Shown here piece after piece: positions 35,881-64,000 of a stretch of DNA of 64,000 nucleotides. Made by a program: the position numbers and the translations under genes. Below the pieces are notes generated by a model that saw nothing but the letters and a program-made list of their open reading frames with translations, did no database searches and was not told the origin of the DNA. Numbering within the stretch: position 1 is the stretch's first letter; the number at the start of each line of letters is the position of its first letter. Source of the stretch: Cyanophora paradoxa CCMP329 (Eukaryota; Plantae; Glaucophyta). The stretch covers positions 1 through 64,000 of the forward strand of contig QPMI01000068.1 of the NCBI GenBank assembly GCA_004431415.1, written 5' to 3'.

Positions 35881-36610
35881 CCACCAGTGACCGCCACGGC
35901 GCCACAGTGTCCGCGCGCCACTAGCTATATATATATATAGGACTTTTCGTGCACGTCACCAGTGACACCACTGGGTGGCACTAGTACTGGGCCTACTACT
36001 GGCCAGCTTAAGGCCTTAAACTGTTCGGAACTTCTTCGAAGTCGCAATTCCGGTACCTTGTACCGGACTCCGGGAGCAACTTCCGATGATAACAATGAAC
36101 GTCATCGGGATATTGGACCGATTCGTACGGGGAATCGTACCGCATCGCGTCGCGATCGATTTCAACTTGGCAAAGTTGGCAACGACCGATCGGACGGATT
36201 CAGCTGGCCAGCTGGCCAGCGCCCGGGCGGCGCCGCTGCCGGCGCGCGCGGCGCCGGCCGCGTCGCCCGGTGCCAGCGCGCCGGCTGGACGGCGGGCGCG
36301 CGCGGGCGCCGGCTGTGCGGCTGGGCCGCCGGCCGGCGGCCGGTAGGGTTGCCGGCCCGGAGTTCCGGGGCACTGAAACTCCGTACGGAGTGCGGAGTTC
36401 CGGATCCGGATCCGGGTGGGTGGGCGGAACTCCGTACGGAGCGGAGGCCTCCATACAAAAACCCGGGTTCGAACCCTGCAGCGCCAGTCGCCCAGAAGGC
36501 CGGAGAGTCAGCAATCCGAGCGCTACAATTAGCGCCGAGCAGCAGGAGCGATCCGATCGAGTTGCCAGACGGCGAGAGGCTGCGAAACATGCACGGCCAG
36601 GGGGGGGTAC

Positions 36611-36908
36611 CACACATAGACAATGCCCGCGTTTTATCCCTCGGCTAAGTTTAATTATAATTTGTTTATATTTTACCTATATTTCTTGCATATTTAACGA
36701 TATTTATGTGTATTTTATCCTTTATTCTTGTCTTTTATGTGCGTATTTTATATATAATCCTAATCAAACCCTTACTTAAACTTAATTTACTCGTATCTCC
36801 GATGTATTTTACCTCTATCTCTCGTAATCATTTGTATTTGAGGTGGATTTTAAACTTAGATAAATTATATCACGCCTCCTGATAAAACGCGGGCATTGTC
36901 TATGTGTG
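36611..36908. repeat. Perfect 28-bp inverted repeat around an AT-rich core (MITE-like or PLV terminal structure)
   Basis: cacacatagacaatgcccgcgttttatc (36611-36638) and gataaaacgcgggcattgtctatgtgtg (36881-36908); no TSD seen. Confidence 0.85.
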
Positions 36909-37237
36909 ATATTACGCATTATCGTGTATAATGATATGGAAATAATATGTGTATGTATTGTGATTGAAAATATGTAAAATATGTAAAATGTATCAAAAGA
37001 AATATGTATGAAATTCTAACGGAATTCCGTCGAAAAATAATAAAATGTTCTTTTGGATATAATGCGAGGAGAATATGGAGCTGATATGGCGCCGCATTAT
37101 AACGTAAACAACTACAATGTGCTGCGTGGGAAGCGGAGTGTATATTATAAGAAAGATACTATATGATACTTGATGATATTATATGATTATTTATGACTGA
37201 TATTATGTTATTTTATTGGGTTCTTACTGAAAATGGT

Positions 37238-37334
37238 TAGTGTAACAGGTGTAACGGGTTCATCCCAAACTTTCCCCTAGGAGGAGGTCGGCGGCTTGGA
37301 ACTTTGGGGAGAACCTGTTACACCTGTTACACTA
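37238..37334. repeat. 32-bp imperfect inverted repeat with TGTAAC iterons
   Basis: tagtgtaacaggtgtaacgggttcatcccaaa versus tttggggagaacctgttacacctgttacacta. Confidence 0.85.
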
Positions 37335-37381
37335 CACTGAATCACAATTAATTAACCTGTTACATCTTCTTTTACCACTTA

Positions 37382-37783
37382 TTACCGTGTCGGAAATCTC
37401 GATACTTTATGTCTCTCCGTATGCGGAGATCCACCAAAGATACCTATTATCCTCTCTTCTATTAACGATGATATATTACATGTCTTTCGCTCCGCGTGCC
37501 TTCCGCAACTGAATATATCGATTGCTAACATGCCCTCGTCTGAGTAACAGTGTGCGGTGCAATGACTCTCATCTAATAGGAGAACTAATGTAAACCCAGG
37601 AGGTGAAAGACCACCATCGAAAATCTCGTAATGCTTGTGGACTACTCGTATACCTTGTTCTTGTATAATATCTTGTAAAAAATGCATTAACCATTTCGTT
37701 GTGGTCTCTAAGTTGTCCACTCCTGTAATTAGTGGACTCGAAAACTTGTGATCTAACATCACATGGAAGCCCCGATGGTTCAT
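37382..37783 (-). CDS. speD: S-adenosylmethionine decarboxylase proenzyme, small prokaryotic-type (pyruvoyl)
   Basis: GFHVMLD...PPGFTLVLLLDESHCTAHCYSDEGMLAIDIFSCG; ESH autocleavage motif. Confidence 0.88.
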   Translation of the reverse strand: MNHRGFHVMLDHKFSSPLITGVDNLETTTKWLMHFLQDIIQEQGIRVVHKHYEIFDGGLSPPGFTLVLLLDESHCTAHCYSDEGMLAIDIFSCGRHAERKTCNISSLIEERIIGIFGGSPHTERHKVSRFPTR

Positions 37784-37827
37784 TTGTGAATTATATAGAA
37801 AAATTAAATTACGGAAATAAGGTAAAG

Positions 37828-39228
37828 ATGCCGTCAGCACAGATAGGATTACGACCCATTCCTAAGATCGTAAAGAAGAGCATGAAAGAAGATCAGGGTA
37901 ACATGCTACCTATAACCATTCCGATAGAACAGAAAAACACACGAATTTTAAAGAAGTCTGAGATAGTTAAAGAACTGATCCCGGAGGCATTGCCTGCTGA
38001 GACTGTAACGAAAGAATCTAAGATTGCTAAGAAGTTTTACGATCCGCGCACCGGATACAAGGGTTTCGGAGCTATGAGGAAGGAGTTACCAGATGAAGAC
38101 TATAAGAAGATGAAAGAATGGTATGATAAACAGGAAGTTGTTCAGATCAACGCGCCGACCCTTTCAAGAAAGAGAGACCCGATGATACCAATTAGGCAGC
38201 CTCTCGATACCTACGTTATAGATCTTCTGTTTTTCCCGGCTTACAAGAAGCAGAATGACGGATACGATACGTTTATGTCGGCTATGGAATCAACGCTTAG
38301 AACAGGTTATATAATTCCGATGAGAGATAAGAGCGCTATTACGACTCTTGCCGCTTTCGAACAGCTACAAAAGAGAGTGCCACGACCTATTGCACGCGTC
38401 CAAAGTGATAGCGGTAGCGAATTTACGAATACTATGTTTACTAATTACCTTGCTAAGAAGTTCATCGACCATCAGATTAGCGATGTCGCAGATCATCGGA
38501 GTCAGGGTAGAATAGAAGCGTTTATCAGGCAGATCAAGCGGCTTATTACGAACTATTGCATAGCAAATAACACGGCGCGATTCTTTGATGTATTGGGTGA
38601 CATTGAGTATAATTATAACCATACTGTCCATTCAGCGACTAAGAGAAAACCCGCAGAAACCACAGATGAGCATTATAGAGAGATCATAGGTTTAGAAGAC
38701 GAGAAGTTTAAGAAGTCGATGGCTTACTTAGACGGTATTCAAAAGGGTATGTTTGTGCGGGTGAGAATAGAAAAGAACCCATTCGCTAAACAGGGTGTCA
38801 ATTGGTCGCGGATCGTTTATACTGTCGAGGGTAGGGAGGGTTTTAAGTTTCGGTTACGAAATCCGAATGGTGAAATGGTCGATGGGAGGTTTGCTTTCCA
38901 CGAACTGTTACCTATCAAAGGTGTAGAGTATCATGAGGCGCCCACAGGTGATGCATTAAAGCAAGCCAAAGAAGAAGCCCGGATAGATTCGGCGATACGA
39001 AAGGAAGGCATCGAAAAAGCGGATGATGTCCCAGAAGAACCGCTAACACAAGCCAGAACTAAGAAGAAAGGGAAGGCGGAGCGTGAAATTAAGAAATTGG
39101 TCATAGCAGGAACCCAGAAGCTATCAGAGGTCAACAGCCAGAGATGGTATACAGACTTCCAGACCTCAAAAGAGACATATACAGCACCTCAAACCCGGGT
39201 AAATCTAAGAAGCAGTTCACGAAAGTAG
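37828..39228 (+). CDS. PLV-B rve/DDE integrase
   Basis: YVIDLLF, QSDSGSEF, GRIEAFIRQIK, YNHTVHSAT. Confidence 0.92.
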   Translation: MPSAQIGLRPIPKIVKKSMKEDQGNMLPITIPIEQKNTRILKKSEIVKELIPEALPAETVTKESKIAKKFYDPRTGYKGFGAMRKELPDEDYKKMKEWYDKQEVVQINAPTLSRKRDPMIPIRQPLDTYVIDLLFFPAYKKQNDGYDTFMSAMESTLRTGYIIPMRDKSAITTLAAFEQLQKRVPRPIARVQSDSGSEFTNTMFTNYLAKKFIDHQISDVADHRSQGRIEAFIRQIKRLITNYCIANNTARFFDVLGDIEYNYNHTVHSATKRKPAETTDEHYREIIGLEDEKFKKSMAYLDGIQKGMFVRVRIEKNPFAKQGVNWSRIVYTVEGREGFKFRLRNPNGEMVDGRFAFHELLPIKGVEYHEAPTGDALKQAKEEARIDSAIRKEGIEKADDVPEEPLTQARTKKKGKAEREIKKLVIAGTQKLSEVNSQRWYTDFQTSKETYTAPQTRVNLRSSSRK

Positions 39229-39369
39229 CATTGATGTGTAGAGGATGCAAAGAGGATTCCGGCGATGGTCGCGGTTTTGCAAATGGATGAGTTGGTGAAG
39301 AGTTACAGCAGTTTGTATGAATTTTTGGGAATTTTGGGTTCCGGAACCCAAATTTAACTTCTCCCCCAT

Positions 39370-41789
39370 GATGGATACGAAGTGTACCCCCCCGGCGTGG
39401 GCACGCCTGCTCCTGGGCCATCCAGCCACTCGCCTTGGCGTCCTAGCACTGGTTCGTGCTCTCCCTCCTGTCCTCTTCCATCGTGCGCATGCGCCGCATC
39501 CGAATTCGGCATTCGTGCCTTTTACCTCGGCCGTTGTGCCAATCCCCTGCCCGTTGTGGCTACCTCTTTGTCATCTAGTGCCACGTCACCTAGCGACCTT
39601 CTTCACGCACCTCGCCCTTCGCCGGACTTCTCCGATTCGAACTTCCCGCCATCGGATGTGACGCTGACTGTCATACGTGCGGTGGCTTCTTGCGCAGTGC
39701 GCATTGTGCTCCACTACTCATGTCTCGTCAAGCCTCTCGCCGTGACGCGCGGGCGGATGCTCCGTCGGCCAGTATTTCCGTTATGGACCCGTTTGCGGGG
39801 GTCTCTGCAGACTCTGCCTCATCGGCTTCCGGCCCACGTCGCGGTCCTGCTGCTCCTCGCTTTCAGCTTCCCTCTGATGCCCCCGTCACTGGCGGCTGGC
39901 CGGTTTACATCACTTCCCCTGTCCCTCGGAAATATGGCACTTTTGCAGTCTGTCCTTTGGGCCGTGAGGCTCTTGTCGCCGCTCTCTCTCAGTTTACCTC
40001 CAGTGCAGCCCTTGATGTCGAGCTCATGTACTCTTTCACCCCTGTGTGGGGCGAGACTGCTGATGTCCGCCGTATCAAGTCCTTTGATCGTGAAACTTTC
40101 TTCAAATCTCGCAAGGGCTCGCTAGAGGCCCTCTGTCAGTTTCCTGCTTTTTCGGGCTCTTCTGTTACCGCTGAGCAGTCGTTGTCCCAGTCTGAGCCAT
40201 CTTGGATTCACCCCACGACTCAGGAAGCTTTTCCAACCAATCCTCGCCAATGTGATGTTTATCGCTTCCGCCTCCATCCAGCACTTCAGCTTGGTGCAAT
40301 TAATGCTCCTCTCGCCCAGCGCCGCACCATGAATACTTTTTTTGAATTTCTCCCTGAAACTCATGTAGTTTCTCGGAATGTCCGGCAAGCCCATAAAGAC
40401 GCCACTATCCGAGCACTTGATAATTTACCAGCAGCTATTATATCCACTTCGTTTGCTCCTTCCTCCAAAGGTTCTTGTCACTTCTTTTGGTATGAATTTG
40501 GCTATCAGCCTCCTACTTCTGCCATGTCAGAGGCAGATAGCTCTTTGAACCATGTCGGCTTATATTCGCGCGACGACTTTATCACTGAAATTCTTAGCTT
40601 CCAGCATGCTCTTCAGGAGCCGGAATCTATCTTCCTGTCCACTTCTGCGGCGTCGGCTCCCCGCTGGCACATCGATAAGACTCGGACTATCTCTCTTTCT
40701 GATACTCCCATTGACTTCGAAGCCAGCCCTGATGTTTGCCTTGTAGCGTTCCACCAGCCTATCAAGACCTTCCAGCACGTTGTGTCTGCTTCTCCAGACA
40801 GCCGCAGTTTTTCTGTCTTTTGTCGGCCTAACTTCGAATCCTGGGACTCTGTCTCCCCGAATCATCCTTTCAGCTGCCGCTTTAGTCTCCTTGTTCGTGT
40901 CCCTTCTACTCATCCCATTCATAAGGCAGCTATGAAGCAGTATTCTCCTCTTAAGAAGGATGATGGCTCTTCTGCTCGGCTAGTCTCTCTTGGTCTTGTG
41001 GGCACATCCGGTGGCATCAGTCGCTTCCATTTCAATAGCTTCAAACCGGAATTCTCTGCTCTCCAGTATTACATGTCTTTGGCTTCTACTCAGAAATGGT
41101 CTAGCCTCTCCGCTTTTTCCGCTCATTCTGAGGCAGATTGCCCTGTTCCGGCTGCCCAGGAATGCACAGACCTTAATCCTCCCTTTGATACTCCTTACTA
41201 CAGTCTTCGGGCAGCTGGTGATAAGCGTGTCTTGTACCACTTTCATCGAGATCCTGTTTTCTATTTCTTGAGCTCTACTACTCGTGAGGAGATCATTCGT
41301 TTCCATTCCATTCAGCGTGCTTTTGCCACTGCTCAGCAGATTACTCGTGAGTCCGCAGCAGCACAGGCTCAGGCCCAGTCTTCTGATGCTCCTGCTAGCA
41401 AGGGTACTCGTCTTTCTGATCCTGAGTCTAATAACTCTTCTGTTGGTATGGCAGATGCTGCTTTTAATGAGTAATCCTGAGTACTACATGACCGTATATT
41501 TTTCTTTGTCCCTGTGGGGCCTCCTGATACCCTCGGGCCGCCCGACAGGGAGCGGGCCGTCACGGGGATTCAGGCCCTTCCTATGTGGCGCCGTCGGGTG
41601 TCCACATAGGTTGGCTTTCCATTCTGCTGGCGCCCTGGGGGTGGTGGCCCAGGGTCCTGTATGCGGCTCCACTCACTCCCCATGCTAGTGGGTCCCTGAC
41701 GGGCCTTGCACGTCCCATTCGGGGCCTCTGCGGCTTTGTCATACCCAGTCTTGCTGGCATGGATGTGTCTACTGCATTTCTCTCTCTCT
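39370..41789 (+). mobile_element. 2.4-kb single-ORF insertion with a (TC)n 3' tail; candidate non-autonomous retroposon
   Basis: 12-bp direct repeat cttctcccccat at 39358-39369 and 41790-41801; C/T-rich composition unlike the surrounding PLV; ends tttctctctctct. Confidence 0.65.
39783..41474 (+). CDS. Hypothetical ~563-aa protein of the inserted element
   Basis: Long uninterrupted ORF; no RT, endonuclease or transposase motif recognised. Confidence 0.75.
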   Translation: MDPFAGVSADSASSASGPRRGPAAPRFQLPSDAPVTGGWPVYITSPVPRKYGTFAVCPLGREALVAALSQFTSSAALDVELMYSFTPVWGETADVRRIKSFDRETFFKSRKGSLEALCQFPAFSGSSVTAEQSLSQSEPSWIHPTTQEAFPTNPRQCDVYRFRLHPALQLGAINAPLAQRRTMNTFFEFLPETHVVSRNVRQAHKDATIRALDNLPAAIISTSFAPSSKGSCHFFWYEFGYQPPTSAMSEADSSLNHVGLYSRDDFITEILSFQHALQEPESIFLSTSAASAPRWHIDKTRTISLSDTPIDFEASPDVCLVAFHQPIKTFQHVVSASPDSRSFSVFCRPNFESWDSVSPNHPFSCRFSLLVRVPSTHPIHKAAMKQYSPLKKDDGSSARLVSLGLVGTSGGISRFHFNSFKPEFSALQYYMSLASTQKWSSLSAFSAHSEADCPVPAAQECTDLNPPFDTPYYSLRAAGDKRVLYHFHRDPVFYFLSSTTREEIIRFHSIQRAFATAQQITRESAAAQAQAQSSDAPASKGTRLSDPESNNSSVGMADAAFNE

Positions 41790-41876
41790 CTTCTCCCCCA
41801 TTGTAACCAAACTTCTCCCCCATTGTAACCAAACTTCTCCCCCCTTGTAACCAAACTTCTCCCCCCTTGTAACCAT
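41790..41876. repeat. 22-bp tandem repeat tgtaaccaaacttctccccc(a/c)t, about 4 copies
   Basis: Directly visible; a partial first unit remains at 39356-39369. Confidence 0.9.
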
Positions 41877-42042
41877 GTGTATATGTATACCATATATACA
41901 CGACATATATATACTATATATACCAAAACCTCCGTAATGCCGTTTGACCGAGAAAAAATGTTTGGCAAAATAATAAATAATATTATTATATATACATATA
42001 CATATATATAATCAAAAAATCGGAAAAAATTCCCTCTTTTTT

Positions 42043-43050
42043 CTATCGTATAAATGCGCCCGTTACATCGACTCTCATAGTCGGAGCATTTATATATACC
42101 AGCGGATAAATTCGAATATATCGTGTTCTTAGTGGAAAACCGATGTAGAAAACATCGTTTATTGCAAGCGGAAAGCCCCCGTTATATGATACATCGCCAG
42201 AGTTATTAGCATTATTTATATTCTCACATACAAACATTCTATTTACACCCTCATATTTGATAAATGACCATGTTATACCATCTTGCGATAGTTTTAATAA
42301 ACGCAGTTGTTATACCTGACCCATAAGCAATTATAGAAGCGACCTCAAATGTATATGGGAAGGCTATTTGCAAATATTCAGTAGGCGTTTCCCATATTCC
42401 GTTTATGGCGGATGCATTCGCTTCCCATCCAGTTAATGATGGGCGGGCTTTAAATGCCTCTTTTCCGAATTTTGCAGAAGAAGCGGTAAACGCATTATCC
42501 GATAGAAGATACCAATTAGCATCGATAGGAGGTATGTTATTAAGGGTGGAAGATACATAGGATCTTACAGGGTTTTTAATCTCATAGTTTGTTACAAGTA
42601 ACTCACAGAGTCGATTTATCATGGCGTCGTTTGCTTGTATATACGTTTCAGTCGCCGCGATCATGTCCGGAATCTTAGAGGTATCATCAAGAGAATTTAA
42701 GATATCTTTCGGGAGCGGCACAGAGATACGGTAGTATCGCGCATATCCTTGGTCATCATTATATGGTAAAAACTCTTGCATCTTTTCAAGAGCCGATAAT
42801 TCACTTGCAGCCATTAGCATATTGATTAATGGACTTCCTGAGGTGGAAGCAATCCATGATAGAATACCCCAGGTATTCACACTTTCGTAAGAGTAACCCA
42901 CATTTGGTGCGTCGGTTTCGTTAACCTCACCACATGATATGCTAATAACTATAATATCGTCATCGTTATCATATATCTTTTTTGCGTGACTATAACCACA
43001 AACACTTGGGTTATTGTTACCTGATATAGCACCATCTATTAAACACATCC
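42043..43050 (-). pseudogene. Patatin-like phospholipase C-terminal half fused to a discoidin (F5/8 type C) domain; 5' part missing, frameshift near 42280
   Basis: LIDGAISGNNNP, IIVISISCG, WGILSW, YYRI, LDD (patatin); AFTASS..GWEA..EYLQIAF and RTRYIRIYP..TMRVDVTG (discoidin). Confidence 0.8.
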
Positions 43051-43635
43051 CGCTCGCTGGGAGGTGAACCCCACTACTTGCGCGCCACCACTTTCAATAA
43101 GCACATTACCCATCATCAAAATTCTCAGTCACAAATTAATAAAATCGCTGTAATTCGCACTGAGTCACACTGTCTTTTTCAATACATTCACCCATCCTTA
43201 CTGAAACCAATCACAAAAACCTACATTTCATCTTCTCTCCGATCTCTTACCATTCTCAGTAAGCCCTAAACCCGTCTCCCGATCTCTCAGTAAGGACAGT
43301 AAGACCGAATTTTTACGAAATGTTCCCGATTGTTGCGGGACTGTTTTCAGTAATCCAAAAAGAAAACCGAGGTGAACCCCACTGAGAGAGTACAATGATA
43401 AAGTACCATGATAAAGTACGATTGAGTTCGCGAGTTTGTGCTGCCGAAAATGCCCACCTGCACAAACTCGCGAATTCGATCGTAATGTACGAATCGAAAT
43501 GTACGATTAGCATATTTACGACAAAGTACGACGATAGACCACGTTAAAATACACTCGCGCCCCGCCCACTATGCAAGATACATGCAAACTACATGCGATA
43601 TACATATATAAATTGTTTTTCTCTTCCTATAATAA

Positions 43636-44439
43636 ATGAAGACTCACTTTTACCATAAGTATGTCGGTAATAAATACAATGAAATGGATACAATCAATCC
43701 TTTTATCGATTTAGAAGGCATAAATAAAATAATAGAACCATTTTGTGGTTCAGGTGCATTTAGTTTCTATCTTTGGGAAAAGCATAAAGAACGTTTTGAT
43801 TACTTTATGAATGATAACGACGAAACACATATACTGTTCTTGAATACAATGAAAGACCCAAACAGTAAAGTAAAACTTTTAGATAGTCTTCAACAGTTCG
43901 AAGCAGTAAGCAATATAGAAGAGCATAAAGAAGTCTATAAGAAGTTTCTACAACATGATCGTAAAGATGTAATGGATTACTTAGCCCATCATTTCTATCT
44001 TCTTAAAAATAGCATTTTAAATGTTAAAACCCTCCGTCATTTCAAAAAACGAAACGCGAAGGTGAGTGCATATACAACTCTTAAAAAGAAGATACCATAC
44101 GATGATTTCCTACAAGATGTGAACTTATCTCTTGGGGATTATCGGGATATTGTGTTGAAATACAAAGATGATGATGATGCATTCATATTTCTTGATCCTC
44201 CATACGTTAATAGCAATAATGACTTTTATGAAAATGTAGAATTTGATATGGAAAAGTTCTTTTTGGATTTGGAAGACCTATTTAAGACAGCGAAATGCAA
44301 GGTTATGATGGTTGTAAATGATGCTCTTTTAATGAAACTCCTATTTAAACCCTATATTCGCCATACGTATGGCAAAGTGTATGGTATAACAAAACGAAAA
44401 AGGAACCATATCATAATGACTAACTATGAACTCGGCTAA
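43636..44439 (+). CDS. D12-class (Dam-like) N6-adenine DNA methyltransferase
   Basis: YVGNK, IEPFCGSG, NDND, FIFLDPPY. Confidence 0.92.
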   Translation: MKTHFYHKYVGNKYNEMDTINPFIDLEGINKIIEPFCGSGAFSFYLWEKHKERFDYFMNDNDETHILFLNTMKDPNSKVKLLDSLQQFEAVSNIEEHKEVYKKFLQHDRKDVMDYLAHHFYLLKNSILNVKTLRHFKKRNAKVSAYTTLKKKIPYDDFLQDVNLSLGDYRDIVLKYKDDDDAFIFLDPPYVNSNNDFYENVEFDMEKFFLDLEDLFKTAKCKVMMVVNDALLMKLLFKPYIRHTYGKVYGITKRKRNHIIMTNYELG

Positions 44440-44491
44440 CACGACCATGTAAGTATCATAGGGTCATTAAATATTTGTTTTATAATTAATA

Positions 44492-44884
44492 ATGGATTCC
44501 CAATACCGCGGCTATCACGTTATGCTCGACTATATAACTGACCCGTTCACCGAGTCCCCGGAGGCATGCGCCGAGTGGATCACAGCGAACCTGTCGCAAT
44601 ATATAACAGATCGCAAGATGCGCATCGTGCATCAGCACACATGCATTTTCGACGGCTCTATTTCCCCTCCCGGTTTCGCGATTGGCTTTCTATTAGATGA
44701 GTCACACGCCACAGCTCACTCTTATAGCGACCAGGGGCTATTGGCAATCGATATCTTTACATGCGGCTCAAATGCCGAAGCGAAGACAATGAGTATAGCA
44801 CGGGACATTAACGAACTCATACAGGAACGACTAAAAGTACGAAAGTGGGACTTACAGGTTGAGCAAAGGTTCCCAGTTTCATAA
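44492..44884 (+). CDS. speD: S-adenosylmethionine decarboxylase proenzyme
   Basis: GYHVMLD...PPGFAIGFLLDESHATAHSYSDQGLLAIDIFTCG. Confidence 0.88.
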   Translation: MDSQYRGYHVMLDYITDPFTESPEACAEWITANLSQYITDRKMRIVHQHTCIFDGSISPPGFAIGFLLDESHATAHSYSDQGLLAIDIFTCGSNAEAKTMSIARDINELIQERLKVRKWDLQVEQRFPVS

Positions 44885-44909
44885 AAAATGAAAAAAACGA
44901 CATATACAT

Positions 44910-45224
44910 TTAATGCTCCTTGATCGGAAACTTGCCCATTAGCGGGTGATCGAGACCCATGACATACCAGCATCGCATAACGGGATCCCAGCGGGCTCTC
45001 TCAGCCTTCGCTTGATCCTTAAATTCATAAGGAATATCGAGGTAAACCTTCACGTTTCTTTGATGCACTTGCTCATAGCTTAGAGTTTTGAACTGAGAGC
45101 ATAGGGGGTGATCTTTCTTCGTGACATACCAGCATGAATTCTCACGATCCCACTTTCCACCGAGGGATTTCGCAACGTCTTTTTTATCATAGGGAATGTC
45201 AACGAAATGCTTTTCACCCTCCAT
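44910..45224 (-). CDS. Tandem DUF5710-like domain protein
   Basis: Two repeats: VDIPYDKKDVAKSLGGKWD..CWYV and LDIPYEFKDQAKAERARWD..CWYV. Confidence 0.8.
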   Translation of the reverse strand: MEGEKHFVDIPYDKKDVAKSLGGKWDRENSCWYVTKKDHPLCSQFKTLSYEQVHQRNVKVYLDIPYEFKDQAKAERARWDPVMRCWYVMGLDHPLMGKFPIKEH

Positions 45225-45263
45225 CGCTTTTATATTTACCGGAGAAAATAATTTCGGGGTTTG

Positions 45264-46646: not shown

Positions 46647-46664
46647 TTTTCTAATTAAACCTGT

Positions 46665-53659: not shown

Positions 53660-53719
53660 GGTGTTGTAGATCTTCTTAATAAAGATAGATAAAAATAACG
53701 ATCTCTTACTAATAATGGT

Positions 53720-54646: not shown

Positions 54647-55046
54647 AGCTCAGCACTGCGCCGTGTCTCCAAAAAAATACCCGCGAAAAAATCAAAAACA
54701 AATCAGAAAACAAACCATTCCCAGTAACCCAATCTTGAATATCAGTAAATCTCAGTAAGCCTCAGTAACCAAAATTGAATTAATCGAAGTTATATCATAA
54801 TCTCGATTAATTATATCTTATCGAAGTTATATCTTTTTTATGCGCCGTGTCTCCAAAACAATTCCCAAGAAAAACAAACCATTCACAGTAACCCAATTCC
54901 AAATCTCACTAAATCTCAGTAAGCCTCAGTAACAAAAATCGAATTAATCGAAGTTATATCTTAAATCTTATTTATCGAAGTTATATCATAATCTCGATTA
55001 ATTATATTTAATCGAAGTTATATCCTTTTTATCCGCCGTGTCTCCC
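54647..55046. repeat. PLV-D terminal (TIR-like) region built from two ~185-bp direct repeats
   Basis: cgccgtgtctcc at ~54659, 54843, 55034; aatctcagtaagcctcagtaac twice; atcgaagttatatc five times. Confidence 0.88.
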
Positions 55047-55051
55047 ATGAT

Positions 55052-56113
55052 TTAGCGTTTGGTTAAACCACTTCTCAAATTGTATCTTCTCCTTACAACA
55101 TTACTTCGATTGGGTTTTATGCCTTCCTTTGCTACCAATCGATTCACTTTATTCGTTTTATTAACCTGCTGAATTCGTTTTTGTGATGGGATCTTAATGA
55201 TATCATCTTTATTCACCTTTTGCAATTCTTGTTTCTTAAATCTCCTCTTCACTTCTTTTGTTTCCTCACCATCATTATCTTCAAGGACTTTGAAACGATT
55301 CCTATCAGCCTTTGCAACAGTGTAGACCTTTTGACTGAATTGCGCACCTTCTTTTTCAAATAATCCCTTTGGTTGCAAAACTCGAACTGTGTCTCCTGGT
55401 TTCACTTGATTAGTATCAGCCTCCTTTACACGATTGTTGTGAACAGTATCCCTCATGTAAATAAATAACTGTTTATCTTCATTTGTATACACTGCATTCG
55501 GTGAGTCATTTTTCAATGCCGAATGGGGACTGCTATTATACAAGTCAATTACATCACTAAGTAGATCGATCCATTTCGTGGTTCCTTTTGCTGTCATCGT
55601 TTTCCTGAGATATTGTTTGAAAGTCCTAGTGAACCTATCAATTATCCCCAGTTTATCTCCTACTGTGATGTGGTCATCCTTTGCCACATCTGTGTAAAGC
55701 ATTACACCATGTTCACTGCACCAATTTCGGTATACTGCCTGGGAAAACTCATTATCCCCAGAGAGAGCATTAACTTTGCCTGCATCTTGCTTGAACCTAT
55801 TTAAAATGTTCGGGATCTCACTGCTGTTTTTAAAAGGATAAACAAATCCTTTGCGACTAAGTATGTCTACGAAACTGAGCATTTTGAAAATGCCATTGTT
55901 GGCAGTCTGAAACCCTCTGAAATATGTTATATCGATTTGAAACGATCTAGGCTTTGCTACTATGCGAAGAAACGATTTGGGTTTCCTTGGTTTCTTGTAG
56001 ATTTGCTGGAGTTCTGAATTTTTGAATTTCTTTTTCAACTCTTTCTCATCAAAACTCACCTTTTCATTAATAAGTTTCTGCCTATACTTCTTGAATGATA
56101 ATACACTATCCAT
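55052..56113 (-). CDS. PLV-D rve/DDE integrase
   Basis: FQIDITY, VDILSRK, SGDNEF, GIIDRFTRTFK, YNSSPHSAL. Confidence 0.93.
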   Translation of the reverse strand: MDSVLSFKKYRQKLINEKVSFDEKELKKKFKNSELQQIYKKPRKPKSFLRIVAKPRSFQIDITYFRGFQTANNGIFKMLSFVDILSRKGFVYPFKNSSEIPNILNRFKQDAGKVNALSGDNEFSQAVYRNWCSEHGVMLYTDVAKDDHITVGDKLGIIDRFTRTFKQYLRKTMTAKGTTKWIDLLSDVIDLYNSSPHSALKNDSPNAVYTNEDKQLFIYMRDTVHNNRVKEADTNQVKPGDTVRVLQPKGLFEKEGAQFSQKVYTVAKADRNRFKVLEDNDGEETKEVKRRFKKQELQKVNKDDIIKIPSQKRIQQVNKTNKVNRLVAKEGIKPNRSNVVRRRYNLRSGLTKR

Positions 56114-59100
56114 TATTGGGCGGCACAGTTACACTTAATATGAGATAGGAAACAATTTTTGGTAATATGAGCCACAGCATTATTGATTCGATCTACCGAG
56201 ATATCTTCGAAGTCCATGGCATTGTAGCATCGCAGGCAATGCCCATACTGCTTCCCATATCGCTGCTTGATCCAGTCCCATGTGATGTAATCATGCTCAT
56301 CGAATTGTCTATTTGCTGCTCGGTCCTGATCCTTGTAAGTCGATATCTTCTCGTTATTCTCTCTCTTCCACACTTTCCAGTGAGCCATTTCGAAATTATC
56401 ATGGTAAATAACAACATCATCCAGCCTTGTGGTTCGAGTGAGAGCAACATAGAGCCACTTCTTTGAAACAAATGGCGCCCCAGTTTCAAACACGACTACC
56501 CTGTTCCCTTTGCAGCGAATCGTATCACCTTGAACAACATGGCAGGTGTTTGCATAAGCCAGGGCGAAATGTTTGACTGCATCCCTGCTGAGAACGATCT
56601 CATCTTTCTTGTTGGCAATGTCAGCAATAATGAAACTGTCCTTTGAGAGCTTGACAATCTTGTAGACAAATCCATTATGAACTATTTTTCCGCCCTTTGC
56701 AATACGAGTCTTTGCAACAACTTTGATGCCGCCAGCATAAATGGAAACATTATCCCCGTAGTTCATTTTGTGAAGGGCTAGGTTCACCTCTGCACCCTTG
56801 CGGTTTGTGTAAACAATGCCAATATCAGTCTTTTCCAATTCGTCCACAACCTTGAACCCATACTTTGCAAGGACCTCACTTACACTCAAACCTTTCTCGA
56901 ATAAATCAATTCGAATTTGCTCAACCTTCCTGCGATCTTCCTCAGTCTCATGTCGCTTGTTCACTTGGAGTAACAATTCGTTGGGGAACAGGCGATGGAG
57001 GATATCGAGGTAATACTCATCTTGGTCAACACTCATATCTTGGATGGGTGGGTTTTGGTACGGGTCCCCTGTGGCAATGTATACCTTATCTGGGAACTGC
57101 TCATTCATGATGTGGTCCAAGGCTGCCAGTTCCCCAATCTTAAACTGACAGATCTCATCAATAACAATGCAATCAAATTCTACCAAACCAGAGGCATTTC
57201 CTCCTACAATTTCATCCATGTTTGACTCATCAATTTTAAGGTGAAGGGCATCATAGATTGTCTTCACATTTTTCAATCCTTGCTCTTTCATTTCTTTCAC
57301 TCGCTTGTTGGTTGGAACAATGTAGAGGGGATTTCTGAAACGCTTTCCATATTCAACTGTCATGTGAGTCTTTCCCACTCCCGGAACTGATCCGAGAAGA
57401 ACCCATCGTTTTTGTGTAGCCAGCAAATCACAAATCGCGGTTGTGTCATACTCATCAACCACAGAGTGTTTGGTATAACTGTAGTTCTCGATTTTCACAA
57501 AGTCAGTCGCCCTCTCAAACTTTCCGTAACGAATTCGTTTTGCCTCGAGGTCTTTCTTCTCACCTGAAAACTTTTTAGAAAAATTGGGGCAGCATTTCAC
57601 ACTGAATTTTCCAATATTCTCAAAGGCATTGCGATCGAATGACACTGGGGCAATGGGTTCATAAGCGATCCCATAAACACAATCGGTGTTCAAAGCGAGT
57701 GGTCGGATTTGCTGTTTAGCGAGTTCGACACACTTCTCATACATACACATCCTCATAATTGACAAGAGGGTAGTGTACAATGGCATGAAGCCATCAATGA
57801 GCTGCTTTTCTGCTACCTGATTGACATAGTAGATATGGGGTTCGGTCATCTCTTCCTCACACAGAACGAACTCTGTCTCCTCATAAGTGGCAAGAGTCTC
57901 ACCAAAGAGGTAAATCTTAACCTCCCCTCCGTTCTGTTTCTGGAACTCGATCGCATCGTCTCTGTTGTGGAAAATGGTGGTTTTCACTCTGCTATTTCGT
58001 TGCTTTCCAGTTTGCCCAATCGCACTCACTAAGATCTGCTTCTTATCAACAGGATCGAGGTCGCTATCTAAGATTCGAGCAACTGTGTTGCCTGCAAGGT
58101 TGGGAATGAGTTTGTAAGGTCGCAGAACCGCTTTGATGGAGATGTCATCCTTGAAATCCTCGAAATGCTTTTTGAGAACCAAACCAGGAACGACATTGTA
58201 CTTGGAATCAATGATCATCCTCTTGTATCTGTTGTAGGTGTTTGCTTCGTACTCCTTTCCGTTCTTGTCTTTGGCTTTGAAAAAGTATTTGTCGTCCAGT
58301 TTCACGTAATAGAAGCTGTATTCCTCGATTTGCTCTGCATCTGTGATTGTCACACTCTTGAAGACATCGAACTTGCTGAGAACAGGAACGAATTTGATCA
58401 TCAAGGCTACAATGTAAGGGTATGCTTTGCACATATCGAACTCGTAAATATCTGTGTTATAGCGAATTTCATCAAAGGTCTCCTCATCCACATCAAAGAG
58501 ACCACGAAGGGCAGTCTGCACTCCATTCTTGAATGCATTTATGGTTTGCTCATTGTAAGTACTCTTGTTGGAAGTGTTGATTAGAGACCTATACATATCC
58601 AGATTTAGTTTCTCGAATTTATCTCTGTACTCAGCATTCTTGAAGCTAATCTCGAAAGCTGTTTCTACATCTGTATCGTTACCAGGTGGGGTCACGACAA
58701 CATCCTTATCGTCAATAGTGAAACGAATATGGGTTGCCTTTCCGATTTGGGAGAACCCAGGTTGGACCTGATAATTATGCACCACAATGAACTCTCTGAG
58801 TAGCTCATCCAGTGAACCACCATAGCAGATTCGAATGCTCGATTGGTTCTTTGGATTGTCAGACCTGACAATTCTCAGAATGTCATCGGGATTTGTGGCA
58901 AACTCCTTGAACCTTCTTTGCTTTATAATCTTGTAACGAGAACTGAGTGGAACATTGGTATCTTTTGGCTTGGAGCCATTGAAGGACTGTGTGAGAGCCT
59001 TAATATTGTGATTTAACAAATACATGTGACCATTCTCAATCTTCACATATGCAACAGAAGGGGTCAAGTGTGTGTTCCTGGTCTTGGGCAGGAAAGTCAG

Positions 59101-60201
59101 TTCAGGGACAGGGGTCCTGTCGTCCTTTCCAATTGTAACCATGCCTAGGCGCAGTGGGTCAAGAACCTTCTCCGAAATGGACTTGAAAGAAATGCCCCAA
59201 TCATCTCCTTCAACAGGGTCTCGCCCATTCACCATCTTAAACAGTCCGTTGTAAGACCAATCGATGCGCTTGTATTTCCCTTTGGTCTTAGCCTTCTCAA
59301 ATGCTCCTCCAAACCATTTGATGAGGACATCAAAGACACACTTCCCAACCTTGAATGAGTCACCTTTTAAGAACATTTCCTTGAATGTGGTGGCTTGGGG
59401 GTTCCCTTCGTTTTTAATGAAATTCGAAATAATCATGGGAGCGTTTGTATTGTCTCTGAGAACTTGTTCATTTCTTGGGATGTATTCTTCATTATCTGTC
59501 GTGATGACTCTTTCAATTGTCATAATATCGGGGTAGGTATCTTGCTCAATTAGTTTTAGGTAGCGGAAATCTTGATTGGTCGAGTTAAACTCGATGACTG
59601 CTGCAATAAATTCAGCAATGACGGTCCCCTCAACACATGGGAACGTATTGAACGTGGATTGAACCAGACCAAGAGCATTCAGAAAAGCTGCCTTGGTACA
59701 CTGGATACCAAAGGGGCGATTGTTCCGAAGCCTCTTCGATTCGATGTAGGTCACACCATTCTCAGTGACCCTGTTCGCGTTTGCGGGAGCCTGTTCTCCC
59801 TCTTGCAACTCACGGAAGAGTCTCACATTCAGAGTGACCATGTTTCCAGGTGAGTTTTCAACAAACTCACGAAGGTTAGCCATCAATTGCTGGAAAGGAG
59901 TCAAGCGCTTCCGCTCTCTCGCTTGCTCCGCTTTCTTGTTTTGCTTCTCAACATTCTTAGCGGCTCTCTCAGCCCTCTTCTCCTTCTTCTCTTGCTTGCG
60001 ATACAAACGAGGCTCTACGATACCTCTCAGTGTATCTCTGATATCAATCAACTTTGGAATTCTAATTGCTTTGAAAGTAAATTCTCTCAAGAAATAGATA
60101 TCCTGCTCTCGGGTCAATTTGTCTTCTACTTTTGCTTGCATGTAGTAACCAAGAATCTCATCCTGTAAATTCTTCGAAATTCGATTACTTGGTCGAGGCA
60201 T
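56113..60201 (-). CDS. PLV-D TP-vOTU-PolB palm-SF1 helicase-HNH fusion, intact, ~1360 aa
   Basis: GKCVFD/NGHMY; DMCKAYP, KKQILVSAIG, NTDC; GSVPGVGKT, VIDEI, TGDPYQNPP, TCHVVQGDT, YVALTR; CLRC...VDRINNAVAHITKNCFLSHIKCN. Confidence 0.93.
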   Translation of the reverse strand: MPRPSNRISKNLQDEILGYYMQAKVEDKLTREQDIYFLREFTFKAIRIPKLIDIRDTLRGIVEPRLYRKQEKKEKRAERAAKNVEKQNKKAEQARERKRLTPFQQLMANLREFVENSPGNMVTLNVRLFRELQEGEQAPANANRVTENGVTYIESKRLRNNRPFGIQCTKAAFLNALGLVQSTFNTFPCVEGTVIAEFIAAVIEFNSTNQDFRYLKLIEQDTYPDIMTIERVITTDNEEYIPRNEQVLRDNTNAPMIISNFIKNEGNPQATTFKEMFLKGDSFKVGKCVFDVLIKWFGGAFEKAKTKGKYKRIDWSYNGLFKMVNGRDPVEGDDWGISFKSISEKVLDPLRLGMVTIGKDDRTPVPELTFLPKTRNTHLTPSVAYVKIENGHMYLLNHNIKALTQSFNGSKPKDTNVPLSSRYKIIKQRRFKEFATNPDDILRIVRSDNPKNQSSIRICYGGSLDELLREFIVVHNYQVQPGFSQIGKATHIRFTIDDKDVVVTPPGNDTDVETAFEISFKNAEYRDKFEKLNLDMYRSLINTSNKSTYNEQTINAFKNGVQTALRGLFDVDEETFDEIRYNTDIYEFDMCKAYPYIVALMIKFVPVLSKFDVFKSVTITDAEQIEEYSFYYVKLDDKYFFKAKDKNGKEYEANTYNRYKRMIIDSKYNVVPGLVLKKHFEDFKDDISIKAVLRPYKLIPNLAGNTVARILDSDLDPVDKKQILVSAIGQTGKQRNSRVKTTIFHNRDDAIEFQKQNGGEVKIYLFGETLATYEETEFVLCEEEMTEPHIYYVNQVAEKQLIDGFMPLYTTLLSIMRMCMYEKCVELAKQQIRPLALNTDCVYGIAYEPIAPVSFDRNAFENIGKFSVKCCPNFSKKFSGEKKDLEAKRIRYGKFERATDFVKIENYSYTKHSVVDEYDTTAICDLLATQKRWVLLGSVPGVGKTHMTVEYGKRFRNPLYIVPTNKRVKEMKEQGLKNVKTIYDALHLKIDESNMDEIVGGNASGLVEFDCIVIDEICQFKIGELAALDHIMNEQFPDKVYIATGDPYQNPPIQDMSVDQDEYYLDILHRLFPNELLLQVNKRHETEEDRRKVEQIRIDLFEKGLSVSEVLAKYGFKVVDELEKTDIGIVYTNRKGAEVNLALHKMNYGDNVSIYAGGIKVVAKTRIAKGGKIVHNGFVYKIVKLSKDSFIIADIANKKDEIVLSRDAVKHFALAYANTCHVVQGDTIRCKGNRVVVFETGAPFVSKKWLYVALTRTTRLDDVVIYHDNFEMAHWKVWKRENNEKISTYKDQDRAANRQFDEHDYITWDWIKQRYGKQYGHCLRCYNAMDFEDISVDRINNAVAHITKNCFLSHIKCNCAAQ

Positions 60202-60442
60202 TTCTTTGTTCACTCTATTAATATATACCTACAAAAGTTTTCTTTAAATACTTTTATACTCGCGTCAAATTTTACCGGCAAAACCAAAAGTCTCCAACAA
60301 AATATATTTAGTCGAGGGCATTTATAAAAATAACGAAGGGTTGGCTCGATCATCGAACTCTAAAAATAACAGAATGATTTTATTTGTGGTTCCAGCGCGG
60401 TTCCCACGGGTTTCTCAGAGCAGATCGCGCTGAGAAAAACGA

Positions 60443-60700
60443 TTAACAGAGATATTTCGATTTGCGACCACGGTTAGAATACGGGACACCATAGAGATAC
60501 TTCACAAAGCAGACTGCATTGGAAGCATAGAGACGCTGGGAACTCTCAACGATTCTCATGGCTCTGTAACACTCATCAGTATGGTATAAATCACGCATTT
60601 GCTTTGCGAATTTCGCATTATACTTTTTTAAATATTCCTGACCTTTTTCACTTTTACGATAACGATAAGTAGCACGCTTCTGAGCCTCACTGATTGGCAT
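60443..60700 (-). CDS. Small basic protein
   Basis: MPISEAQKRATYRYRK...; upstream motif shared with the PolB gene. Confidence 0.65.
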   Translation of the reverse strand: MPISEAQKRATYRYRKSEKGQEYLKKYNAKFAKQMRDLYHTDECYRAMRIVESSQRLYASNAVCFVKYLYGVPYSNRGRKSKYLC

Positions 60701-61049
60701 TTTGTCTTTTTCTACTCTCTTAATATATGTTAAGAAATCTTTAAGTAGTTTTTCTGTCTGTATATAGCGAATAAACTCCTGTCAAATTTTGGTCCCGATT
60801 GCAGAGCATCCAGTACGAAAGAAGATGCTGGAAAAATGATAAAGCTACCGATACCCAGAAGGTTCACTTGTCGGCTGCAAGTTTCTACCACTGAACCCGG
60901 TAGAACAGGTGATTAAAGTGATTTACCTATGGATATTTCACTTCGCTCTACAACGCCTCCATAAAAATGAAGAAGTTTTGAGCCTACGGGATAGGATTGG
61001 TTACGTAGCGCTAACAATGTTCAAGATTTTTTAAATTCGGAAATGATCC

Positions 61050-61811
61050 TTAACGGCGATATCCAGGTCTGATCCCGAGCTTGGCAAACCCTGAGACCAT
61101 TGGAGCAGCATTTGGAATCGAGTTGACTGGATCAGCCTGCGAAGTGGCAACCCGAAGGATCGATTTATTGAGGACCGGCAAATCCGTTTTGTTGGAGTCT
61201 TGGTAATCGATTGTCTTTGCAATCAATTCGGTTGGTGATTCTTTTACAACTTGAACAGGTTCAGGGATGACTTCATGGGTTACTTCTGGTTTCTTCTCAA
61301 CCTTCTCCTTTGTGATTGGCTGTTCCTTGATCTTGTTTTCGTTTTTGGTCTCTGCTGCAATGCCATCAACAAGACTTTTAGCATACTGATATGTCACAGA
61401 TTTCAGTCCGCCAGTGGTTGAACGAATAAAGTAGCGGTTGCGATGGTCTTTCTCGGAATAGGTCGAGTAGAGCCTCTCGCCACCATCAAGCAGTTTCAGC
61501 AGTGTCGATGATGAGGCAACCTTATCCTTTGTGGATGATTTGAACTGCCCTTTCTTGATTCCTCGTTTGGCTCCGGGCATGCGGTTCAATGGGACTTGGT
61601 CAACCAGGGCATTATCATTGTTGCTGTTTTTCGTAGTGGCTTGGGTGAATTGGTTTCGTTCTTTATGGACTTCTTTATCGAGGTCACCAGTTCCGTATGC
61701 AGCGATTCCCTTCGATTTCTTATACCAGTTCCTTCCAGTCTCACCATTGCCAACATCCGCTTCAGCGGCTGGTTTGGACAAGAAATTCTTGGGCTGAGTC
61801 TTGCGAGCCAT
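61050..61811 (-). CDS. Hypothetical Lys-rich PLV protein
   Basis: 253-aa ORF directly downstream of the penton gene. Confidence 0.7.
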   Translation of the reverse strand: MARKTQPKNFLSKPAAEADVGNGETGRNWYKKSKGIAAYGTGDLDKEVHKERNQFTQATTKNSNNDNALVDQVPLNRMPGAKRGIKKGQFKSSTKDKVASSSTLLKLLDGGERLYSTYSEKDHRNRYFIRSTTGGLKSVTYQYAKSLVDGIAAETKNENKIKEQPITKEKVEKKPEVTHEVIPEPVQVVKESPTELIAKTIDYQDSNKTDLPVLNKSILRVATSQADPVNSIPNAAPMVSGFAKLGIRPGYRR

Positions 61812-61847
61812 TTGTAATATCGAGACAAATTTATTCTACAGTATTTC

Positions 61848-62735
61848 CTATGACCGTGAGAACGGCAGGTAGAGTCCCTCCAACTCTTTTATGACATTCT
61901 TCAATGCTTTCTTCGTCAGATCTTTATCATCTTCAGTAATCAGTTCAAGAGTCATCGACCAGTCGGTAGTAATGTCTGCTGTGGCTCCGTTCCAGTAAGA
62001 AAGTCTCACATCTAGAGTCTCAACCTCAACCAAGCCATTCTGCTCGTGAACGATCATGGAATTATTCGATGAATCATATTTTAATAGACTGCCAACCGTT
62101 TGGTCAATCTCAATTTTTGCAATAGCATTGTTATCTCGTTTGTTATTGCTCACATATCTTCCTTTCAGTGGATCAACATGAAGAAGCAAATAGGAATTAA
62201 ATAGGAGATCTAATGGCATTTCACTATCAATGTAGTGAGCATAAGTAAAGGCTCCAACTGTGACATTAGATGATAGAGGACTCGATTGATAAAGTGTGTT
62301 TGCATTTTCAAAACCGCAGAAATTGGCTAAGAGTTGAGTGTTCATAGTGATTGAGAATGGAACCTCGCACATAAACCTTAGAAGCAATGTTGTGGGATCA
62401 TAGGTTACATAGAAATGGCGAGTGTAAGTTCCGCCACCCGCTTGATTATAGGGCTGGGATCCAATGCGAGCGATCAGATAATTCACCAGTGAATCGGGTG
62501 TATATGCACCTCGGAGGACTTCGTTGTTTCTATTCTTTGGGTTCCCAGCATTATCGAGTGTTTGAGTGGTGAGGGTTCCTACTTCAGAGAGGTTGTAAAG
62601 ATTGTGAAACATCTCAAAGTTCGTTACTCGACAGGCTCTGACCTTTTGGATCGCATAAGGGAGTCTGTATGTGAAATTAGTTGGGGTTCCATCCGATCGG
62701 TCCCTGGAATCAATATTGAGATAGTAACGCGTCAT
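61848..62735 (-). CDS. Minor capsid (penton) protein
   Basis: N-terminal LNIDSRDR..FTYRLP and C-terminal LDVRL..WSMTLEL, typical of PLV/NCLDV single jelly-roll pentons. Confidence 0.82.
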   Translation of the reverse strand: MTRYYLNIDSRDRSDGTPTNFTYRLPYAIQKVRACRVTNFEMFHNLYNLSEVGTLTTQTLDNAGNPKNRNNEVLRGAYTPDSLVNYLIARIGSQPYNQAGGGTYTRHFYVTYDPTTLLLRFMCEVPFSITMNTQLLANFCGFENANTLYQSSPLSSNVTVGAFTYAHYIDSEMPLDLLFNSYLLLHVDPLKGRYVSNNKRDNNAIAKIEIDQTVGSLLKYDSSNNSMIVHEQNGLVEVETLDVRLSYWNGATADITTDWSMTLELITEDDKDLTKKALKNVIKELEGLYLPFSRS

Positions 62736-62787
62736 TCTGTTTAATAAAGCATTTTAAAAATTTCTTTTGGTATTTTAAACATAAGAG

Positions 62788-64000
62788 ATGGCACTCACTG
62801 GAACTACCCTTAAGGAATTACTCGTAACTCCCGGTTCCGATCAAATTTATCTGTCCCCTGGTCTCCAGATTGGAACCAACCCCAAATACAAACCATTCCT
62901 CGAGCAAGTTCGTCCCCGAGGCAATACTTTTGGCTTTAAGAATACCGCTTACTTTGATCTACCTCGCAAGCAACTCCTTGCTGGTGTTTCGCTCTATTTC
63001 AAGATTGCCACTGGTGGTGGTGTAGCCTGCACCCTCCCCAATGGTGGTTCTTCCTATATTAATGAGGTCCGCTTTGTTCATGGTGGTTTCAAGTATATCA
63101 TCCCTGGTGACTGGATTACTGTGAATGCTCTGGTTGATACTGATCACGCTACCATGGGCAGCATGTATGCTTCTCTCGGTTACTTCAAAGAACTTGATCG
63201 TGAAAGCACAGATGAGGCTATGGAATACATTGTTAAAATCCCCGCTGCTTTCTGGGATGATGCTTACTTCCCACTATGCAAACTGGCGGATATGCCAACA
63301 ATTGAGGTTGATTTCCGTGATGCTGCAATTGTCCAGGTTCCCGCCGGTGGATCTGTTACCTTTGCGGATTGCTCTCTGATCTGCCAATTCGTTAACATCG
63401 CTTCGGCTGAGGCTGAGACACTCTTGAAGATGGCGAACGAACAAGGTGGCATTCGCATTCCGATCACAGAGGTCATCCACAAGAAGACCCGAGCGCTCAA
63501 AACCGCTGATGCTGGTGAATCGGTTGAGGTGACACTCGCTAATGTTTCCGGTCTGGTTCATTCGATTCTTATGACTGTTCGAGAGGTGAACAAACTGAAC
63601 ACCTACACTCATTCTGATTTCTGTGGTCATGTTTCGGATGTTAAGATTGATCAGTTCCAGATCTTCCACAACAATCGCTCCCTTGATATCTCCAACAAAC
63701 CCATTTCCGGTTTCCTCTCGGCAATGAATCACATTCCATCCCATTATAAGGGCGTTTCAGTTGGCAATACCACCTATGGATTCGAGTCTGGAAATGTTTA
63801 CGGAATTGTTCTATCCAAATCCGGAAAGGATTCACTCCACAACTCGGTTATGGGTTACCAGGATTTCTTCAACAGCAGTTCGAGTTACATGGATCTCACT
63901 GTTTCCGGATGCACTGATGCCGCTCCTGTTCAGGTTGATATCTATGCCCTCCGACACAATGTTATGGTACTCAATGGCTACAACATCTCTACCCTGAAAG
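62788..64000 (+). CDS. PLV-D double jelly-roll major capsid protein (absent from the ORF track because its stop lies past the window end)
   Basis: 404 open codons: MALTGTTLKE...FGFKNTAYFDLPRKQLL...YFPL...SGLVHSILMTVR...GYQDFFNSSSS...VDIYALRHNVMV. Confidence 0.9.
   Translation, partial: MALTGTTLKELLVTPGSDQIYLSPGLQIGTNPKYKPFLEQVRPRGNTFGFKNTAYFDLPRKQLLAGVSLYFKIATGGGVACTLPNGGSSYINEVRFVHGGFKYIIPGDWITVNALVDTDHATMGSMYASLGYFKELDRESTDEAMEYIVKIPAAFWDDAYFPLCKLADMPTIEVDFRDAAIVQVPAGGSVTFADCSLICQFVNIASAEAETLLKMANEQGGIRIPITEVIHKKTRALKTADAGESVEVTLANVSGLVHSILMTVREVNKLNTYTHSDFCGHVSDVKIDQFQIFHNNRSLDISNKPISGFLSAMNHIPSHYKGVSVGNTTYGFESGNVYGIVLSKSGKDSLHNSVMGYQDFFNSSSSYMDLTVSGCTDAAPVQVDIYALRHNVMVLNGYNISTLK

Follow-up and report, generated by a model that had tools for sequence, protein, structure and literature searches.

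The first 64,000 nucleotides of contig QPMI01000068.1 of the glaucophyte alga Cyanophora paradoxa CCMP329 (forward strand; hereafter the window, to whose positions all coordinates refer) harbor four viral elements and two retroposons in one stretch. The viral elements, here called A, B, C, and D from left to right, are related to the Polinton-like viruses (PLVs), and B, C, and D probably form a serial nest in which each younger element lies within a gene of an older one. The left 28.9 kb of the window (positions 1–28900) has a GC content of 64%, and AT-richer blocks follow to the right: A (41% GC; 29070–33843), B (38–40% outside an insert of 54%; 36599–43061), C (44%; 43062–54646), and D (42%; 54647–64000). 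Contig depth identifies the viral families as multicopy, with many near-identical copies. Twenty public DNA sequencing runs of one organism carry part of the C/D stretch, and contigs from four runs (X1, X5, X9, and X17, of which X5 is possibly the window's own source) were inspected over 131 bases around the C/D boundary. No related locus is present in the viral contigs or metagenome contigs searched, and nine open reading frames (ORFs) of the window are absent from the exact-sequence protein collection.

The C/D and B/C junctions

At the right-hand junction, the major capsid gene of C (minus strand, 53720–54646) consists of its 3′ two thirds, with the first ~157 codons missing. The frame runs to 54646 and aligns with 54% identity to residues 158–456 of P0001, a 456-residue protein from a Cyanophora paradoxa record that is the only relative found for this fragment. 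Element D follows with the terminus AGCTCAGC. In runs X5 and X17 the terminal contigs of the D family start exactly at 54647, which bears out the claim of the preliminary description that D begins with AGCT at this position, exactly where the C capsid frame breaks. The last six letters on the C side (GCCACC, 54641–54646) are the predicted target duplication. The depth of the D terminal contigs is about twice that of the integrase contigs (ratios 1.9 and 2.1), and the depth at 43308 in C is about twice the internal depth of that element (ratios 1.9 and 2.2); depth is a rough measure, but the doubling in both families suggests two ends, as for a terminal repeat.

In all four runs, C-family contigs extend beyond 54646 into other sequence that, read by eye, codes for the P0001 residues N-terminal to the break. 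Intact C capsid genes therefore exist in other copies, and the C family has not been disabled, contrary to the proposal that newcomers disable earlier viruses. One contig of run X5 crosses the junction itself (54575–54672), with 72 letters on the C side and 26 on the D side. A span of C/D is thus seen in X5, short on the D side; X1, X9, and X17 yield no bridging contig, and there the capsid allele closest to that of the window continues uninterrupted. The missing contig in these three runs is not counted as absence, because contigs drop rare links. The insertion of D into C is possibly culture-specific and very recent, or the junction contig was possibly lost in contig cleaning.

The left-hand junction interrupts a minus-strand gene of B (42043–43061) that encodes, over two frames, the C-terminal half of a patatin and a likely discoidin (F5/8 C) domain; the frame changes near 42250–42310, and the 5′ half of the gene is missing. 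The patatin ORF, which ends at 42251, covers positions 196–343 of 354 (E = 1.9e-36) in a profile built from 107 relatives of 290–400 residues that were themselves hits to the same B query. PADLOC and NCBIfam also call the ORF a patatin, and all ten of its scanned relatives are Pfam patatins. Among the 151 matches listed, full-length patatin relatives mostly align from residue ~170–240 on. The GxSxG motif lies within the part of the profile that B lacks and is present in 105 of the 107 full-length relatives, and no N-terminal patatin half (~195 profile positions) is encoded in any of the six frames of the window. The fragment has no usable Atlas or Protein Data Bank (PDB) match, and a word-index search with it returned no longer relatives. 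The discoidin assignment is weak (E = 0.0045 to factor VIII C2, no Pfam match); a patatin apparently fused to a discoidin domain is an odd cargo for such elements. At 43062 the patatin gene gives way to an AG-starting terminus that resembles the ends of A and D (AGGTGAAC; the motif occurs again at 43370) and is likely the left end of C. C had initially been placed from about 43050, where the B patatin breaks; the broken patatin stands, and the boundary is better set at 43061/43062, where this terminus lies.

Gene content and affiliation of the elements

The visible part of C (43062–54646) opens with genes for a Dam-type methyltransferase (plus strand), an S-adenosylmethionine (SAM) decarboxylase (plus), and a DUF5710 protein (minus) at 43636–45224 (PF02086, PF02675, and PF18974). 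On the minus strand follow a retroviral-type (rve) integrase of 460 residues (45264–46646; PF00665, E = 8.6e-14), a fusion of a polymerase-like domain and a superfamily 1 (SF1) helicase (46665–50980), a small ORF (52455–52848), and, upstream in the reading direction of which lies the truncated capsid gene, an A32-type packaging ATPase of 260 residues (52877–53659; PF04665, E = 1.7e-9); no such ATPase was found in the visible parts of A, B, or D. The fusion gene aligns to its D counterpart in two frames, with a frame change near 47670, and C-family contigs of all four runs have one extra base at 47672. The small ORF is broken by a 10-bp tandem duplication (52730–52754). A repeated motif (family D15) found 5′ of three minus-strand C genes (45227, 50992, and 51562) is a candidate viral promoter.

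The visible part of D (54647–64000) begins with internal subrepeats behind its terminus (54692–55045). Its minus-strand genes are an rve integrase of 353 residues (55052–56113; weak matches to PF00665 and PF13683), an open frame of 1362 residues that fuses a polymerase-like domain to an SF1B helicase (56113–60201; AAA_19 and Viral_helicase1, and RecD2 with E = 5.9e-10), and ORFs of 253 and 295 residues without a family match (61050–62735), of which the latter adjoins the capsid gene and is a minor capsid candidate. In the integrase region, 16 of 773 letters differ between the window and the main family contig. The polymerase domain has no Pfam or PDB match; segments picked out by eye in the 1362-residue protein are putative polymerase motifs A, B, and C. 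The double jelly-roll major capsid gene (plus strand, 62788–64000) is nearly complete at the window edge and has 23% identity to P0001 (E = 1e-20). Its product is assigned to capsid clusters by the Atlas (0.98, with low recognition) and matches the PBCV-1 and mavirus capsids by Foldseek (E = 1e-7, from a low-confidence model with pLDDT 44 and a TM score of ~0.25), the top matches listed being double jelly-roll capsids or unnamed proteins; a word-index protein search gave no match. Capsid genes of this kind are seen in C and D, and none is present in the visible parts of A or B.

Rve integrases are recognized by PF00665 in B, C, and D (strongly in C, weakly in B and D), and these and the integrase of A are similar to one another. 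The likely third catalytic position is Asn in the C integrase (residue 224, 45975–45977), Glu in B, and Asp in D. As judged from their sequences, C and D have the gene set of Tlr1-type PLVs, with the polymerase-like domain recognized by eye only. Tlr1-type PLVs are described as carrying a capsid protein, a packaging ATPase, an rve integrase, and a fusion of 1000–1400 residues between an inactivated protein-primed DNA polymerase and a C-terminal SF1 helicase, and as having inverted ends and tens of copies per genome (Krupovic, Yutin, and Koonin 2016, PMC5499653, in the parts consulted). The capsid, ATPase, integrase, and a long protein with a C-terminal SF1 helicase recur here, 1362 residues falling within the stated range; the polymerase domain is recognized by eye, and a minor capsid protein is present at most as a candidate. 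The strict definition of Polintons/Mavericks, which calls for a stand-alone protein-primed DNA polymerase and a maturation protease, does not fit: the protein assigned to replication has a helicase fused to it, and no protease was found among the scanned ORFs of these partial elements. A helicase-polymerase fusion of opposite order has been described in the accessible part of Haro et al., and adintovirus-like proteins in Cyanophora contigs in that of Starrett et al.

The capsid complement of this alga has been catalogued. The supplement of Bellas et al. 2023 (PMC10120064), as far as it was available, gives 366 capsid genes for Cyanophora paradoxa in two clusters marked ‘new’ (272 and 94), and its Table S2 of HHpred-confirmed capsids includes P0001 and, by eye, sequences that closely match the D and C capsids. 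In 99.94 Mb these genes correspond to 3.7 per Mb, and the viral share of the genome is estimated at 7.3%.

Element B (visible left part, 36599–43061) is delimited by the drop in GC content and by multicopy depth, with an uncertain left end, placed either at 36599 (AG) or at 36600–36601 (a G run). Near this end lie two inverted repeats, at 36608–36911 (71-nt arms, 72%) and 37238–37334 (35-nt arms, 89%). It encodes an SAM decarboxylase of 133 residues (minus strand, 37382–37783; PF02675, E = 1.2e-12) with 48% identity to that of C, and an rve integrase of 466 residues in an open frame (plus strand, 37828–39228; PF00665, E = 7e-4) with 35% identity to that of C. Since only the decarboxylase, the integrase, and the patatin fragment are visible, and neither a capsid nor an ATPase gene lies within 36599–43061, B would be a PLV by kinship rather than by hallmark genes, and it is as a complete virus that we suppose it to have entered the locus. 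An SAM decarboxylase near the integrase-proximal end is common to B (37382–37783) and C (44492–44884), and C has the Dam-type methylase in addition.

Between the integrase and the patatin fragment, B contains insert X (plus strand, 39370–41789), a 2.4-kb sequence of 54% GC flanked by a 12-bp duplication (39358–39369 and 41790–41801). It sits where a 22-bp tandem array of B starts, ends at its 3′ side in a CT-repeat, and encodes an ORF of 584 residues (39720–41474) that matches no family in Pfam or the further family libraries. B alleles free of the insert are found in all four runs (joint 39352→41881), as is a variant of the insert without 39437–39751; insert X is itself multicopy and was likely retroposed. 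A candidate small element with short inverted ends at 36601–39393 was dropped, its right-hand motif falling within insert X.

The main piece of A (plus strand, 29075–33843) contains a broken polymerase-helicase gene and an integrase gene and ends in a terminus at 33843. An upstream piece of the polymerase gene lies at 17768–18036 (plus strand), of which 17768–17986 aligns to residues 114–187 of the D protein (E = 2.6e-8 when only 17000–18100 was searched). The two pieces are separated by an 11-kb long interspersed nuclear element (LINE; minus strand, 18037–29074) that encodes an endonuclease, a reverse transcriptase, and an RNase H. With gene pieces on both sides and a 16-bp target duplication (18021–18036 and 29075–29090), the LINE in A is a complete, readable nest, and the upstream piece rules out the idea that the missing polymerase part of A is absent beyond the LINE. 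No further viral ORF match was found in 1–29100 at E ≤ 0.5. A was initially called a close relative of D; the kinship holds and the closeness does not, as the nucleotide identity is 66% over 1.4 kb and the amino acid identity 37–48% for the polymerase-helicase and 62–63% for the integrase. By these sequence comparisons A belongs to the D lineage, yet forms a separate family. In the GC-rich left part of the window, a family of 90–100 bp tandem repeats, also GC-rich, occurs at 11–505 and 11085–12332, with a related inverted set at 11085–11388.

Probable serial insertion in a virus-rich genome

The arrangement at 36599–64000 is best accounted for by two successive insertions, in which C would have entered the patatin gene of B and D would then have entered the capsid gene of C. 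We consider this serial nest probable at both levels even when the right-hand halves of both genes are demanded, and more so if one-sided remnants count. The rve integrase of each element would join the inverted ends of a linear genome, which start with AG, to the target, of which about 6 bp would be duplicated. Insertions into host genes would be selected against, and a landing in a resident virus would cost nothing, which would make resident viral DNA a sink for any mobile element. With 89% of visible C and 86% of visible D coding, the breaking of a gene is the default outcome of such a landing, and a newcomer would nearly always cost the copy it enters a gene, with intact copies persisting elsewhere. 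Whether the locus arose by serial integration of three Tlr1-type PLV families together with a passive build-up of nests appears to us an evenly balanced proposition.

The viral load of the genome supplies the null expectation for this account. In 3000 simulation runs, 366 elements of 15–20 kb were inserted at random. Without selection, 10–14 elements were nested and at least one triple nest arose in 19–29% of runs; with 50 Mb of host DNA tolerated (half off limits) the latter figure was 47–62%, and with 25 Mb tolerated (three quarters off limits) it was 87–96%. Across the simulations, ~10–45 elements, or ~3–12%, were nested. The preliminary interpretation stands in part: the two junctions are most plausibly read as serial nesting, and a preference of the integrases for resident PLV DNA is not needed to obtain it, as random insertion produces a triple nest in 19–96% of runs. 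The retroposons point the same way. The LINE in A and insert X in B both show their duplications and both flanks, and the only fully readable nests in the window are thus retroposons in viral DNA, which are independent of viral integrases.

Two patterns that had been offered in support carry little weight. All three nested elements do present their integrase-proximal end to the left, as the preliminary description stated, but equal orientation in three of three has a chance probability of 0.25 and adds no evidence for nesting. Lesions were said to decrease inward in keeping with the insertion order; B has one frame break (patatin-discoidin, where support is weak), C has two, and D has none in 9.35 kb. 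The breaks in B and C and their absence from D are confirmed, but under uniform density none of the three would fall in D with a probability of 0.24, so that the gradient does not speak for any insertion order.

Several observations weigh against serial insertion or its passive form. The right-hand gene halves, right terminal inverted repeats, and target-site duplications predicted for C and D would lie past the window end at 64000. Contig evidence concerns C/D, and the B/C junction is predicted from the patatin break, the terminus motif, and the depth at 43308. At C/D, the 26 D-side letters of the crossing contig fall short of the 31-letter rule applied, and the contig comes from one run of four, maybe the window's own source; the C-side contigs listed for X1, X9, and X17 all stop at the junction, where together they make up the entire depth. 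A is truncated again left of 17768, with no remainder within 17 kb, so truncated elements occur at this locus. The simulation assumes equal-sized elements. Finally, under a mixture with 7% viral DNA, built from the window composition, a GC content of 40% or less is expected in ~7% of 30-mers, and it was seen in three of three readable D flanks (p ~4e-4; one two-contig loose end and one flank without letters were left out), a result poorly accounted for by a purely passive model.

Nested PLVs are already known, and the present locus extends them to a glaucophyte host. In Halocafeteria seosinensis, the part of the preprint seen (bioRxiv 10.64898/2026.07.28.741278) reports 14 viral elements within others (5 PLVs and 9 virophages), including one three-level nest, with LINE and DNA transposons in or near viral elements, and favors a safe-harbour reading in which elements ‘land where tolerated’. 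The Cyanophora locus shares the viral-in-viral nests and the retroposons that land in them; it differs in host lineage, in that its layers come from related families with integrases and not from a virophage and a PLV, and in that its right ends are unseen. Retrotransposons nested in integrated viruses are described in the accessible parts of studies on the endogenous mavirus-like elements (EMALEs) of Cafeteria burkhardae, where type 1 Ngaro elements lie to 91% in EMALEs, a measured preference (Hackl et al. 2021, PMC8547959), and on cryptophyte PLVs (PMC12220804, PMC12747079). Those systems resemble ours in having GC-rich retroelements in AT-rich integrated viruses, with rve integrases, short target-site duplications, and no sequence-specific target reported in the parts seen. 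Unlike here, the nested elements there are retrotransposons, and the Ngaro preference was measured. In the available portion of the main text of Bellas et al. 2023 (PMC10120064), neither ‘nested’ nor ‘Cyanophora’ occurs and nesting in Cyanophora paradoxa is not described, and the literature found on PLVs in Cyanophora or glaucophytes, as far as accessible, describes no nests of these elements.

Target choice and other explanations

The nest may be real and yet reflect integrases biased toward AT-rich DNA or resident-virus chromatin, possibly by way of a nucleosome-binding tail, a weaker form of the preference proposed at first. This is a possibility of some substance, though we would not expect it to prove correct. 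The three readable single-contig flanks of D copies elsewhere have 20–40% GC, compared with 64% for the left 28.9 kb of the window, and the contig of one flank has the size of a junction, as would follow from entry into another repeat. However, few of the at least 30 D ends expected are covered, by a selection that may be uneven, and none of the three flanks is found in the window, its viral DNA included, when as many as 3 mismatches are allowed. We do not read the CACC-like context before several D ends as a consensus of the target, since resemblance to the window makes a flank likelier to be picked up. The tail is found in the last 15 residues of all four integrases (C-termini at 33652, 39228, 45264, and 55052) as R-x(1,2)-LRS, in the form R-x-LRS in B and C and YNLRS in D. 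The pattern has no match in 6688 residues of 17 other ORFs and arose in 5–7 of 20000 shuffles. The integrases of B and C have ~50 extra residues before the tail and keep the motif. YNLR is also part of the Gag peptide with which foamy virus attaches to the acidic patch of nucleosomes and guides its integration (PMC12125541). On the other side, the choice of motif was post hoc and the integrases share ancestry; a tether to the acidic patch would not discriminate among nucleosomes; and retroposons also land in these viruses. No paper that joins Polinton integrases to the acidic patch was found in a literature search outside which most subscription papers lie. The more specific proposal, in which a foamy-virus-like R-x-LRS/YNLR tail tethers the integrase to nucleosomes, integration favors resident viral DNA that is AT-rich, and D continues to move in laboratory cultures, seems to us quite unlikely.

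It is unlikely, if slightly less so, that the junctions are one-sided, products of adjacent deletion or recombination within a virus cluster, such that the missing gene halves are absent downstream. No right-hand half or target-site duplication is seen before the window ends at 64000, A is truncated on its left, and the Halocafeteria preprint (bioRxiv 10.64898/2026.07.28.741278), in the part seen, reports elements that are partial or recombined. Against such an origin, both breaks fall on an AG-starting terminus (exactly for D, by motif for C), and both of the fully readable nests in the window are clean insertions with duplications. Assembly chimerism between repeat families at one or both junctions is very unlikely: many near-identical copies exist and three of the four runs have no contig across C/D, but no sequence common to the C capsid gene and the D end, or to the B patatin gene and the C end, could seed a mis-join, a contig of X5 does cross C/D, and low-depth links between deep repeats get dropped from contigs. 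Least credible is a dedicated host locus that would trap viruses and keep them as an archive for silencing. The 64 kb do contain four viral elements along with a LINE and further repeats, and Tetraselmis has been reported to have a possible PLV hotspot, but the density is explained by 3.7 capsid genes per Mb together with selection, and the orientation and lesion patterns are at chance level.

Serial insertion remains the preferred reading. At the viral load of this genome, nests are expected without targeting, and this expectation provides the null against which any preference can be judged. Once confirmed, the AT-rich bias of the flanks and the integrase tail would bear on site choice by PLV integrases and on the inactivation of resident viruses by superinfecting elements, in an alga with many public runs. 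Should the tail indeed direct integration into resident viral DNA and D be moving in cultures, the targeting of one virus by another could be measured directly in cultured Cyanophora paradoxa.

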